Below the pieces are notes generated by a model. It saw only the letters and a program-made list of their open reading frames with translations, did no database searches and was not told the origin of the DNA. From the NCBI RefSeq assembly GCF_044324875.1, contig NZ_CP172185.1: a DNA stretch of 64,000 nucleotides, one strand, 5' to 3'. How positions within the stretch are numbered: the stretch's first letter is position 1; every line of letters begins with the position of its first letter. Both the position numbers and the translations under genes were made by a program. The stretch is from Escherichia coli. GTDB lineage: Bacteria > Pseudomonadota > Gammaproteobacteria > Enterobacterales > Enterobacteriaceae. Shown here in pieces: positions 18,468-64,000 of the stretch.

Positions 18468-18487
18468 AAATTAGCTCAAGCAATCAA

Positions 18488-18516
18488 GCCCTGGTAACTG
18501 CCAGGGCTTTTTTATT
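18488..18516 (+). terminator. Rho-independent terminator of rne
   Basis: Hairpin agccctgg-taac-ccagggct followed by TTTTTT. Confidence 0.7.
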
Positions 18517-18661
18517 TCATCTTTAAATCAACATATTAAAATTCATCGAATGGCATCCTTGCTAACCAACAATACAAAATAGGCAAAAAAATGCCCGCCC
18601 CGGCGATCCCAGAGCAGGCAGACAAAACATACCCAGTTTCATGATATGTTTTAAAGCGAGC

Positions 18662-59297: not shown

Positions 59298-59398
59298 GCC
59301 GCGCATGATAGCAGAAAACGCGGCCATGAATGAGATCGAGCACACATTTTATGCAACAACAAATTATCTGTTGCAGTTATGAGTGATGCAGATCACAT

Positions 59399-59953
59399 TT
59401 ACTCTTCAGAATCTTCTTCCAGCTCGTCCCACATTGCACTAATAGCATCGCGGGTTAGCGGTGCCATGGTGCGCCAGAAAGGCGTAGTTGCATGGGCCTC
59501 CACTTTGCCAAGGAACGCACCACACCAGGGTAACAGATACTCACTGAACAGTGTTTCCAGTGCTTCGCTCTCATCTTCCGTTGACTGATCTTCCAGCCAG
59601 GAAGCCGCGAGCAGCAATGTGCCGATGTGATCGGCTGGCGTATCCGCTAATGGCATCCCCCGTTCGGAAAGAAAAGCGCGCACTTCCGCTTCCGTCGCGC
59701 CCTCAACCCATGCGCTACGATATGGCGGCACAGCACATTCATCGCCGATAAACAACGCATTGTAATCGGCAGAGACTTGCGCCATATCACAGCTTTTCTG
59801 TAAACGCGTCAGTAACTCATCCTGCTCCAGTGGCCAGTTCGCAGCCAGTTTCCCCTCACGAATCAGGGTAAACAGCGGCACCAGTAAAGGATCTTGCGGT
59901 TGGCGGTAATAGAGCGAACCCAGCACACGACAGAGGATAGAAAACTCGTTCAT
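59399..59953 (-). CDS. ycdY: TorD-family redox enzyme maturation chaperone YcdY
   Basis: 184-aa ORF; paired with ycdX as in E. coli. Confidence 0.9.
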   Translation of the reverse strand: MNEFSILCRVLGSLYYRQPQDPLLVPLFTLIREGKLAANWPLEQDELLTRLQKSCDMAQVSADYNALFIGDECAVPPYRSAWVEGATEAEVRAFLSERGMPLADTPADHIGTLLLAASWLEDQSTEDESEALETLFSEYLLPWCGAFLGKVEAHATTPFWRTMAPLTRDAISAMWDELEEDSEE

Positions 59954-59976
59954 TAATATATTTCCATTACTAGTAA

Positions 59977-60714
59977 TTAAAGGTCTGCAAATTCCGCAAT
60001 CGGTGCCATACCGCGAGATTCAAGGAAGTTCAGTAAGCGGCGCGGAGAAACATTCAAAATGCGCTCTGGCGGAAAATCTACCGCGTCGAGGATTTTAAGA
60101 CACTCTTCAAATTCACCCATGGTAAACGCGGTGTGAGAATCCGAACCTAATGCCACCCAACCTCCAGCGTCACGTACCGCTGCGGCTACCGCACGACAGT
60201 TGTCTTCACTGCCCTTACGTGAGTGTAAAAATGAGGAATTATTGATTTCCAGCGCCACCTGATGTTTCGCAGCTGCTTCAGCAACGGCTTTAACATCTAT
60301 TTCATATTTCGGATTTCCGGGATGGCTTATTATATGCACATTGCCGCTGGCGATAGTGGCGATCATCGCTTGCGTATTAGTCGCTTTGTCATGCGGCGCA
60401 AACACCGGCTCATGAAAACCGGCAATAATCAGATCCAGCGAATCAAACATTTTGCCACTGCAGTCAATTTCACCGTCAACATTTTTAATGTTAGCTTCGA
60501 TGCCGCGCAGGATCCCAACCCCATCAACCACTCGCGGCCAGATACGCATGTTAATGAAGTGCCAGTGATGCGGCGCATCTTCCATATCCGGGCCATGATC
60601 GGTGATCGCAAAAAGTTTAATGCCCTTTTGTTTGGCCTGGGCAATGTAATCACTCAATGTGCTATATGCATGCGTGCTGGCAACGGTATGCATATGAAGG
60701 TCGACGGGATACAT
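59977..60714 (-). CDS. ycdX: PHP-family zinc phosphatase YcdX
   Basis: 245-aa ORF with PHP His motifs ([10 protein letters not shown].. HPGNP..). Confidence 0.93.
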
Positions 60715-60768
60715 AACTCTCTCCTGTATTCAATTCCCGCCAAGGATAGCAGGAAACCTGATGCTTTA

Positions 60769-61746
<978 letters not shown>

Positions 61747-61940
61747 TTATCGTTATGATCTACAAAGACCACCAGCATAACAAATCCGTGGTCGGTGGCA
61801 AAAAAAGCAGATTTCGCTTATTAAAACTGCATATTGATTGAAGTTTGAATAAACGCGCGATTTTTTAAAAAAGTTTGTTGACCTCAGGTCATGATTTCCC
61901 TAAATTAGCGCCCGTTCCAGCAAGACAGGAACGACAATTT

Positions 61941-62028
61941 GGTGAGGTGTCCGAGTGGCTGAAGGAGCACGCCTGGAAAGTGTGTATACGGCAACGTATC
62001 GGGGGTTCGAATCCCCCCCTCACCGCCA
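61941..62028 (+). tRNA. serX: tRNA-Ser (anticodon GGA)
   Basis: 88-nt sequence GGTGAGGTGTCCGAGTGGCTGAAGGAGCACGCCTGGAAAGTGTGTATACGGCAACGTATCGGGGGTTCGAATCCCCCCCTCACCGCCA with long variable arm and encoded CCA. Confidence 0.97.
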
Positions 62029-62036
62029 GATATTGA

Positions 62037-62069
62037 GCGCATGTTATTGTTTAACATGCGCTTTTTTTT
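62037..62069 (+). terminator. Rho-independent terminator of serX
   Basis: Hairpin gcgcatgtta-ttgtt-taacatgcgc followed by T8. Confidence 0.8.
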
Positions 62070-62180
62070 ATTTTTCCTTCCAGGCAGTATGCCACAGGGT
62101 ATGCCATCTGAAACCGGTTTGTATGAGCCTCGATCACATCTTATCAGACAATTTCCGATCTTTGAGCATACAGGGCAAAG

Positions 62181-63023
62181 CTATACTGCCAGCATGTCAG
62201 GATAGTGTCTGACGATAATATCATTCAGTCTGTCAACCAGTTCCGGTTTCCTGAACGTGATATGCGCGGAGCCTTTCCTGAAGTATCTGATGCTGAACAT
62301 CTCATCCTCATAGCATGCTTCACCCTGAACGGACCGGATGTGCTCATCCAGACGAATGAGGATATTGTCCCGGTCAGTGGGTATGGGTTTACCGCTGAAC
62401 AGATACAGTATCCTTTCCAGGTCGGCAAGCCGCCCGGCCTGCGGACCATGGTTCAGACCAAATCCCCACCAGTCCCATTTCACCAGGTTGTTGAGGATAA
62501 TCTTACTGCCGAATTTACAGGGTGACCCGCTGTTGTGCGTCCGGCTCAGTCCTCTGAAGAGGTTGATGACGCCCCGTTCAGCCATTTCATCCCTGTTACG
62601 GTGCAGTTGTTCAGACGTACTCAGGATATTCGCTTCGCTGATTTCCGGAAAATTATCCTCCTCCAGTGAACGGTACCATTCATCACGCGCCTGTGCATCC
62701 ATCAGACTCAGCATCCCGGAGCGTTGCATCAGGTCACGCCAGATTTCACGGTCAAGGTTCCGGGTGATGGCTTTCATTGCGGTTTCCGGTTTTTCCATCA
62801 GCCAGCAGCCACAGCGAAAATCCTGTTTCACGGCCCAGTCCCGGGCCGTTTTACCTCCGATGCTTTCTGTCATTACTGAGATTTCTGCCAGTTGCCGGAT
62901 AAGCCTTTCGGTTTGTTGCAGTGCTTCATTCCGTACCGTCACAACGTGCCGGATACTGGTTGAGCAGATAACGTCCGTATGTCCGTTAAGCGTTTCCGGA
63001 CGGGAGACTGTGATATCAGACAT
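62181..63023 (-). CDS. Uncharacterised island protein, DUF4942-like
   Basis: 280-aa ORF; family assignment from memory of proteins found downstream of cbtA in CP4-type islands, not from a search. Confidence 0.7.
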   Translation of the reverse strand: MSDITVSRPETLNGHTDVICSTSIRHVVTVRNEALQQTERLIRQLAEISVMTESIGGKTARDWAVKQDFRCGCWLMEKPETAMKAITRNLDREIWRDLMQRSGMLSLMDAQARDEWYRSLEEDNFPEISEANILSTSEQLHRNRDEMAERGVINLFRGLSRTHNSGSPCKFGSKIILNNLVKWDWWGFGLNHGPQAGRLADLERILYLFSGKPIPTDRDNILIRLDEHIRSVQGEACYEDEMFSIRYFRKGSAHITFRKPELVDRLNDIIVRHYPDMLAV

Positions 63024-63119
63024 AACCGATATTCCTTTTTGCAGATAAATGAAAACGCCAGCCGTATTCGGACTGGCGTCAGTGGAATGAATCGTGGTGA
63101 GTGAGATGATGAGTGAGAC

Positions 63120-63317
63120 TCACAGGTTCTGGTGCTGAAGCTGCAGCTGGCGCAGGGTGCGGATATCCTCCCTGGCCTGTTCGATACAGGGCAACAGTGC
63201 TGCCGAATCCGTTTTATCCTCATCGTTGTCGAAGATAATGCAGGAGCCGCAGTCGATATTGTCCTGCAGCCACGCAATCAGAATATCCGGTGCTGTTTCT
63301 GTGGTTAATGATTTCAT
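63120..63317 (-). CDS. Small uncharacterised island protein (65 aa) with CxxC motif
   Basis: 3' portion of ORF-track entry 63120..63704, starting at internal Met (MKSLTTETAPDILIAWLQDNIDCGSC..), 20 nt downstream of the preceding gene stop; upstream part of that ORF overlaps the better-supported gene in another frame. Confidence 0.5.
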   Translation of the reverse strand: MKSLTTETAPDILIAWLQDNIDCGSCIIFDNDEDKTDSAALLPCIEQAREDIRTLRQLQLQHQNL

Positions 63318-63336
63318 ACGGTGTCTTTTGTCCCGG

Positions 63337-63825
63337 TTACCAGTCGAAAGTGGGAAAACCCGGCAGACATTCAGCGCCGGCATCCAGATGAATGAGACTG
63401 ACGCCATAACGCCGGATGAGAGTGACAACCAGACGACGAAACGTTTTTGACAGACCCAGGCGTTTAAGCCGCAGAGCCGGGTACGACCACGCATCAGTAC
63501 GTAACAGATATCCGCTGCCTGTAAAATGAATCCATTCTGATTCGCCGTTGTCATTCGTCTGATGCGACAGCGAGTACAGCCAGGCATTGTCCTGCTCCGT
63601 GATATGTGCGGTACTGCAGCGTATGCCGGTAAGGGCCGCAAATGGTGGCATGCAGTCTGCTGAGGTCCGGTCAGATTCATCAGCAACACGAAGGGAACAG
63701 CCATTATCGCAGACCACGTTAATCAGTTCAGCGAGATTAACACCATCGACGTCAGCGACAATGCGCCCCATGTTCAGTGCCTGTACGTTAACGCTGTCGG
63801 CTTCCAGTGTCAGGGACAGTTTCAT
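63337..63825 (-). CDS. Uncharacterised protein downstream of cbtA (YeeW-like position)
   Basis: 162-aa ORF whose ATG overlaps the cbtA stop in an ATGA junction, implying translational coupling with the toxin gene. Confidence 0.75.
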   Translation of the reverse strand: MKLSLTLEADSVNVQALNMGRIVADVDGVNLAELINVVCDNGCSLRVADESDRTSADCMPPFAALTGIRCSTAHITEQDNAWLYSLSHQTNDNGESEWIHFTGSGYLLRTDAWSYPALRLKRLGLSKTFRRLVVTLIRRYGVSLIHLDAGAECLPGFPTFDW

Positions 63826-64000
63826 GGTTTCACCTCACAGTGTTTACCCAGGGTGATGTTGTTCACCATTCTGTAGTGGCTGCGGGTCATCAGGCCGGTC
63901 GCCCGGCGGGCCCGGAGAATATCAATGCTGCTGATTAACTGCGATGAAGCTCCTGCGCTGAATCCCGGCTGGTCGGTACGCACCAGCGCGTATTTTTCCA
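63822..64000 (-). CDS. cbtA: Type IV toxin-antitoxin system toxin, CbtA/YeeV family, 3' end only (gene starts beyond window)
   Basis: Hand translation of reverse strand gives ..EKYALVRTDQPGFSAGASSQLISSIDILRARRATGLMTRSHYRMVNNITLGKHCEVKP-stop, closely matching the C-terminus of YeeV/CbtA-family toxins. Confidence 0.85.
   Translation of the reverse strand, partial: EKYALVRTDQPGFSAGASSQLISSIDILRARRATGLMTRSHYRMVNNITLGKHCEVKP

Follow-up and report, generated by a model that had tools for sequence, protein, structure and literature searches.

The end of the analysed stretch of the Escherichia coli contig NZ_CP172185.1 (assembly GCF_044324875.1) raises the question of which element follows the tRNA gene serX, at which base it begins and by which route it came to this place. 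The whole stretch, 64,000 nucleotides (nt) long, is called the window in the following, and the element in question occupies its last two kilobases. An initial annotation, made from the sequence alone, had described island genes behind serX, with the toxin end of the island turned towards the tRNA. The comparison with complete genomes now indicates, with a probability of roughly 0.9, that positions 62029-64000 are the integrase-distal end of an island of the serX/serW-integrating family, to which the SRL pathogenicity island (PAI), OI-43/OI-48/SpLE1 and the PAI-serX of extraintestinal pathogenic E. coli (ExPEC) belong. This island family is already known and common, and the observation is real and ordinary.

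Boundary of the island at serX

The genes on the 5' side of serX were read from the window annotation. This side carries ptsG, fab, rne, flg, mdo, csg, ycdXYZ and ghrA, and from ptsG to ghrA all of them are core genes, which bears out the earlier statement that the chromosome is core up to serX. The sole tRNA gene near the window end was identified as tRNA-Ser(GGA) by ARAGORN, and Rfam concurred. Its sequence is the same in the window, in K-12 and in the island-free strain ECA64. The features that define the boundary are as follows.

61941-62028, plus strand: serX, tRNA-Ser(GGA) (ARAGORN; Rfam tRNA, 53.8 bits), left intact by the insertion
62015-62028, plus strand: attL core CCCCCTCACCGCCA; these 3'-terminal 14 nt of serX are at the same time one copy of the direct repeat flanking the island
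62029-62180, plus strand: island-encoded attL arm, non-coding, 152 nt, without homology to either K-12 or the empty site

The closest complete genome, that of E. coli strain 135 (NZ_CP080260.1; 99.1% over 20 kb), was used as a proxy for the far end of the island. The BLAST comparison of the K-12 serX region with strain 135 revealed the 14-nt repeat: the K-12 homology ends exactly at the CCA of serX, and the K-12-type sequence that follows serX resurfaces about 65 kb away in strain 135, after the last 14 nt of serX. The empty site was taken from ECA64, an island-free relative with the order ghrA-serX-DUF2726-phoH, and the three sites attB, attL and attR were compared with each other. The attB of ECA64 is the same as the window through CCCCCTCACCGCCA and unrelated beyond it, and from the 14-mer onward it is the same as the far junction of strain 135. 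Because the homology to K-12 and to the empty site stops at the serX CCA, 62029 is the latest position at which the island DNA can start. The insertion in the window is found at the 3' end of tRNA-Ser(GGA), and the tRNA is intact.

The boundary is thereby fixed to base level, with attL at 62015-62028. The initial annotation had let the island begin about 40 nt past the serX terminator, a placement that lies about 40-80 nt too far to the right, and it had sought the attachment boundary beyond the window; the near boundary is inside the window, attL being the 3'-terminal 14 nt of serX itself. The remark that the 150-nt spacer holds no direct repeat of the tRNA 3' end was correct. The 14-mer occurs a single time in all 64 kb, and a second copy is absent from the window. 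A spacer of this kind is expected, because the second copy of the repeat belongs at the far end of the island, by the integrase gene (int).

Terminators behind serX

The first structure met within the arm is a hairpin, which had been taken for the terminator of serX.

62035-62071, plus strand: island-borne replacement terminator of serX (terminator scan; 12-bp stem, hairpin at 62035-62063, 5-nt loop, T8 run)

This hairpin stands exactly where a tRNA terminator is expected. If it were the native serX terminator, the island DNA would begin only about 40 nt later. Such a reading is very improbable, as K-12 and the island-free relative differ from the window from the first base after the CCA, and the terminator GAGCTCGTACGAAGGTACGGGC with its T-run was found at the far junction of strain 135. 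The hairpin also travels with the island arm in O157 and in ATCC 25922. In K-12 and in the island-free relative the native terminator has the sequence GAGCTCGTACGAAGGTACGGGC, also given as TCTTTAAAGAAGAGCTCGTACGAAGGTACGGGC, each followed by a T-run; its folding energy is -20.5 kcal/mol, and it is located directly after serX in the empty site and at attR in strain 135. The minimum free energy of the island hairpin is -17.8 kcal/mol (z = -7.1), and its stem is unchanged in three island variants. The hairpin behind serX belongs to the island, and the native terminator has been moved to the far junction.

Far junction and integrase in the proxy strain

The second copy of the 14-mer was located in strain 135 at 64,852 bp from the first. 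The repeats are perfect (14/14), one at each island end and two in 91.6 kb, and the island between them measures 64.8 kb. A longer copy of the serX 3' end, 26 nt in length, was looked for in the extracted loci and was absent from the far end, the repeat being only 14 nt long. The search for a direct repeat of the serX 3' end at the far boundary, proposed in the initial annotation, leads to this 14-mer beside int.

The integrase of strain 135 is intact, of the tyrosine type and 402 amino acids (aa) long, and its gene is transcribed inward from the far junction. It has the domains Arm-DNA-bind_3, Phage_int_M and Phage_integrase, and the alignment shows the R-H-R-H-Y residues. The protein shares 97% identity with the integrase that NZRM3614 carries at its serX/ycdU junction; this strain was taken as O157-type although the serotype is not stated in its record. 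The identity to the integrase of ATCC 25922 is equally high. The integrase gene is absent from the 64-kb window, as had been stated earlier, and an intact one is found at the far junction of strain 135.

The content of the strain 135 island was read from the toxin end to the integrase. After cbtA come genes for CbeA/YeeU, DUF987, RadC, antirestriction, DUF932 and DUF905 proteins, followed by an Ag43 pseudogene, copies of IS66 and a YeeP-like GTPase gene. Then follows cargo of about 35 kb with transporters, a 5-oxoprolinase cluster, lactate genes and a sugar cluster of the raffinose/sucrose type. Near int there are inovirus Gp2-like genes, DUF3987 and an AlpA/excisionase-like helix-turn-helix gene. 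Many insertion sequence (IS) fragments, pseudogenes and a group II intron are distributed in the island. All the genes that had been listed for a full annotation of the element, namely the antitoxin, RadC, antirestriction, Ag43 and integrase genes, are present in strain 135, Ag43 as a pseudogene.

With its far end outside the window, the element could also be a decayed and immobile remnant, of which the toxin-side end is left and the integrase or the far repeat is deleted. Internal IS-mediated deletions and the loss of junctions are documented for OI-43/48 (PMC3064760), and in strain 135 the island is itself rich in IS fragments and pseudogenes. Strain 135, which matches the window without substitution over the last 4.7 kb, nevertheless has the intact 402-aa integrase and the perfect 14/14 repeats. 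In the set of 5426 complete E. coli genomes, moreover, the int-attR junction occurs in 1262 and the tRNA-Ser(GGA) with the arm, at serX or serW, in 1355, so that the number of far junctions is close to the number of attL junctions. A remnant is therefore considered improbable.

The reading of the window as the end of a complete serX/serW island carries over to it, by analogy with strain 135, a far junction, an integrase and the competence to excise, all of which the window's island would probably possess. Some points weigh against this reading. The far junction and the integrase are seen in the proxy only, which is identical to the window at 59330-64000 and about 1% different elsewhere. Integrases or far junctions can be lost, as happened in O157 strain 95S (PMC3064760). 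Among the island-end genes, the 65-aa open reading frame (ORF) had no match in the current Pfam-A, NCBIfam, PHROGs or PADLOC.

Relationship to known islands

The 14-bp repeat connects the window with islands that have been studied by experiment. Bielaszewska et al. described OI-43 and OI-48 of O157:H7 EDL933 as flanked by perfect 14-bp repeats TGGCGGTGAGGGGG, which correspond to the 3'-terminal 14 bp of serW/serX and recur identically in the Shigella SRL PAI (PMC3064760). The CCCCCTCACCGCCA of the window is the reverse complement of the published TGGCGGTGAGGGGG. In the OI-48 layout the cryptic ser'X has an integrase of the P4 family as its neighbour, and the intact serX adjoins the last island gene (PMC3064760). 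Precise, integrase-dependent excision with formation of a circle is published for the SRL PAI as well as for OI-43/48 (PMC3064760; review PMC7545054). Complete excision of OI-43 and OI-48 was measured at about 2e-4 to 2e-3 per cell (PMC3064760), and internal IS-mediated deletions as well as junction loss belong to their documented history (PMC3064760). Islands at serX are listed for CFT073, UTI89, RS218, IHE3034 and UM146, and the SRL PAI at serX/serW (review PMC7545054).

The window shares the tRNA-Ser(GGA) target, the sequence of the 14-bp repeat in its attL copy and the polarity with OI-48/OI-43 (EDL933), SpLE1 (Sakai) and the SRL PAI (Shigella flexneri 2a), and the integrase of strain 135, at 97% identity to that of NZRM3614, is of the OI-48 type if this strain is O157-type as taken. 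O157 has the same terminal block of DUF4942, DUF957, DUF5983, CbtA and YeeU, with att arms 92-97% identical; its island end is about 86% identical to that of the window (279 mismatches in 1972 nt). The cargo differs: strain 135 carries sugar-utilisation, transporter and lactate genes and 5-oxoprolinase, and neither ter/ure/iha nor the SRL resistance locus with fec. The PAI-serX of ExPEC (CFT073, UTI89 and RS218, and seen in ATCC 25922) likewise has the same site, arms and terminal module and an integrase 97% identical, with a different cargo of S pilus, salmochelin and Ag43 (PMC7545054). By its junction coordinates the island of ATCC 25922 is about 109 kb long, and its DUF4942 gene is frameshifted.

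The anatomy of the two junctions was read from the comparison made here, and the steps that depend on the integrase are taken over, by analogy, from the literature on the same family. In the proposed mechanism a P4-type tyrosine integrase would recombine the attP of the island with attB, which consists of the 14 bp at the 3' end of tRNA-Ser(GGA). The island's own 14-bp copy would regenerate serX at attL, the island hairpin would terminate serX directly behind the tRNA, and the native terminator with the 14-bp remnant (ser'X) would be displaced to the far junction by int. On the two opposite sides of attP would lie int and the block GTPase-Ag43-antirestriction-RadC-CbeA-CbtA-DUF5983-DUF957-DUF4942, and the polarity of the attP core would set the toxin end, and not int, beside the intact tRNA. 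The integrase together with an AlpA/Rox-type factor could reverse the integration.

The position of the toxin end beside the tRNA was examined in other islands. In O157:H7 strain Z1825 and in ATCC 25922 the order is ghrA, serX, DUF4942, DUF957, DUF5983, CbtA and YeeU, and the int of the far side adjoins dgcT or ycdU in ATCC 25922 and NZRM3614. CP4-6 of K-12, located at thrW, shows the same polarity with thrW, the toxin gene ykfI, the antitoxin gene yafW, DUF987 and RadC up to intF, its genes being on the strand opposite to the tRNA. It differs in the tRNA target and lacks DUF5983, DUF957 and DUF4942 save for a pseudogene remnant. A kinship with IntF-type integrases, suggested by this shared polarity, was rejected, since the identity is about 21% and confined to the catalytic domain. 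CP4-57 of K-12, at ssrA, has the same module of GTPase, DUF932, antirestriction, RadC-like, DUF987, antitoxin and CbtA-family toxin genes opposite int, but its polarity is reversed: intA is directly beside ssrA and the toxin end (yfjZ, ypjF) is distal, which is the classical P4-like layout. In the circular form int and the toxin block lie on either side of attP, whichever layout is considered; the difference is confined to how the core is oriented with respect to the element.

An inversion, or an entry independent of the tRNA, was also considered for the toxin-first polarity and rejected, because O157 and ATCC 25922 have the same order, the O157 layout is published and CP4-6 is arranged likewise. 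The earlier suggestion that the element perhaps entered by another route is hence not needed, the toxin-first arrangement being that of OI-48 (PMC3064760) and also of CP4-6. The window is in this way connected with an island family that has been published and studied by experiment and that brings virulence, resistance or metabolic cargo to about one fifth of E. coli genomes. Beyond the correct annotation of the locus the importance is small.

Occupancy of the locus in E. coli

The serX flanks were compared in the same set of complete genomes. The contiguous junction of ghrA, serX and island arm was present in 1176 of the 5426 (about 22%), and in the others the match goes no further than the end of the tRNA. 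Island-free sites with identical flanks exist, ECA64 being an example. The locus is thus strain-variable, in accordance with the initial annotation, both by its partial occupancy and by the existence of empty sites. That the four ORFs behind serX are conserved core genes of the locus is practically negligible as an explanation. They do occur in many genomes, but only about 22% of the complete genomes have the junction at serX, empty sites have identical flanks, and a genome carries the module repeatedly at other loci (median of 4 places).

It had further been noted that K-12 has ycdU in this place instead of the island. This stands in so far as ycdU is present after serX in K-12; three RtT-type repeats come first, however, and ycdU is not an allelic alternative to the island, because NZRM3614 keeps ycdU beyond the island integrase. 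The K-12 chromosome (NC_000913.3, extracted locus L003 14020-14653) shows after serX three extra tandem copies with a period of 181 bp, which contain the last ~18 nt of serX and the terminator. As these three tandem copies follow serX, K-12 has four 14-bp attB cores in a row. Two of the K-12 repeat units reach the Rfam gathering score of RtT RNA, and in many genomes RefSeq labels such units RtT small RNA. Strain 135 and ECA64 are without pgaABCD, dgcT and ycdU, and a segment of about 1.2 kb with a DUF2726 gene lies between serX/attR and phoH (extracted loci L002 5677-6363 and L004 4108-4794). This variant was observed in 1043 of the 5426 genomes.

The attL arm and candidate integrase sites

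Between the non-coding arm at 62029-62180 and its counterparts in the O157, O111 and ExPEC carriers of the island the identity is 92-100%, and the mean column identity over strain 135, ATCC 25922 and O157 is 95%. Rfam at the gathering threshold gave no match in 62029-64000. A repeated motif follows the island terminator within the arm.

62086-62107, plus strand: two direct RGTATGCCAY repeats, 12 nt apart, with cores of the 8-mer GTATGCCA at 62087-62094 and 62099-62106

The 8-mer GTATGCCA has three copies in the 64-kb window, two of them in the attL arm. A second RGTATGCCAY pair with the same spacing and orientation is located in the int-proximal arm of strain 135 (L002 6589-6610, minus strand); besides this pair, GTATGCCA occurs twice elsewhere in 50 kb of that genome. 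All four RGTATGCCAY copies are invariant in three diverged island variants. Because the integrase has an Arm-DNA-bind_3 domain, the pairs are proposed as arm sites, and their conservation and arrangement in the sequence make them good candidates for arm-type binding of the integrase. They offer a concrete candidate for the arm sites of the SRL/OI-48-type integrase.

Possible arrival of the island with its core flank

The divergence between the window and strain 135 is not uniform along the chromosome. Over 18-59 kb of the window there are about 10 differences per kb, and between 59330 and 64000 there are zero substitutions. The tract of identity consists of 2.7 kb of core flank (ycdX, ghrA and serX) and the island end, with one indel in a T-run at 62069. 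K-12 and O157 differ at 55-61 sites in this flank, so the flank is not intrinsically invariant. The continuity of flank and island end in one identity tract suggests import by homologous recombination. In that event the island would have arrived together with chromosomal flank in a larger donor segment, by conjugation or transduction, and its att sites would stem from an older integration elsewhere. This is a tentative explanation to which somewhat less than an even chance is given. Against it, the island-free ECA64 shares the flank haplotype, with 1 mismatch in 59330-62028, so the tract may be independent of the island. The visible end of the tract is on one side only. Import of the flank is also compatible with integrase-mediated insertion at serX as the original event, and the two are not exclusive. 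If the tract does mark such an import, it is a small example of the spread of an island by homologous recombination.

The observations on the arm and on the flank may be joined in one reading, whose odds are put just below even. The conserved spacer behind serX would be a working half of attP, with two of the four candidate arm sites for the SRL/OI-48-type integrase, the other pair being beside int, and with a dedicated terminator for serX; and in this lineage homologous recombination, and not the integrase, may in addition have spread the island along with 2.7 kb or more of core flank.

Genes of the island end

All genes of the island end lie on the minus strand, as stated in the initial annotation: the DUF4942 gene, the 65-aa ORF, the DUF5983 gene and the 3' part of cbtA follow serX. 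The gene order read in the window confirmed that the CbtA toxin end faces the tRNA.

62181-63023, minus strand: DUF4942 gene, 280 aa (Pfam DUF4942, E 2.3e-60; RefSeq WP_029490447.1), the last island gene
63054-63080, minus strand: terminator-like hairpin between the 65-aa ORF and the DUF4942 gene (scan; 10 pairs, 6 of them G-C)
63120-63317, minus strand: 65-aa ORF, in RefSeq a DUF957 domain protein (WP_001349630.1)
63337-63825, minus strand: DUF5983 gene, 162 aa (Pfam DUF5983_N, E 1.5e-29; DUF5983, E 5.5e-22)
63822-64000, minus strand: 3' part of a cbtA-family toxin gene, which runs off the window and would reach about 64199

Only the last 58 codons of the toxin gene are within the window. The full cbtA was therefore read in strain 135, which is 100% identical there, and it gave a match to CbtA_toxin (PF06755, E 1.9e-59). 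The CbeA/YeeU antitoxin had been predicted just upstream of cbtA and outside the window, and in strain 135 it is found there (PF06154, E 1.3e-54). The CbtA_toxin and CbeA_antitoxin domains match over essentially the full length of the models, and the two genes are adjacent. The same domains and the same adjacency characterise the CbtA/CbeA (YeeV/YeeU) type IV toxin-antitoxin system of CP4-44, of which the window holds the C-terminal 58 aa of the toxin only. In the YeeV/YeeU family the toxin inhibits FtsZ and MreB, and the antitoxin opposes this effect without itself binding to the toxin. By analogy, the allele of strain 135 and of the window would probably function as a toxin-antitoxin pair directed at the cytoskeleton.

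The stop of cbtA and the start of the DUF5983 gene overlap by 4 nt (ATGA, 63822-63825), which suggests that the translation of the toxin gene and of the DUF5983 gene downstream is coupled. The hairpin at 63054-63080 suggests that the DUF4942 gene may be separately transcribed or attenuated. The DUF4942 protein showed a weak PHROG similarity to a DNA methyltransferase family. None of the four island-end ORFs had a match in NCBIfam, and PADLOC gave no match for six island-end proteins, so that no link to a catalogued defence system was drawn.

A further difference from strain 135 was observed in the core part of the window. In the intergenic region at 18468-18661 rne is followed directly by flgL, and in strain 135 a pair of TacA antitoxin and GNAT toxin genes lies between flgL and rne (extracted locus L006 23792-24576), a pair that the window is without. 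As this TacA/GNAT pair is present in strain 135 and not in the window, the two represent different strains.

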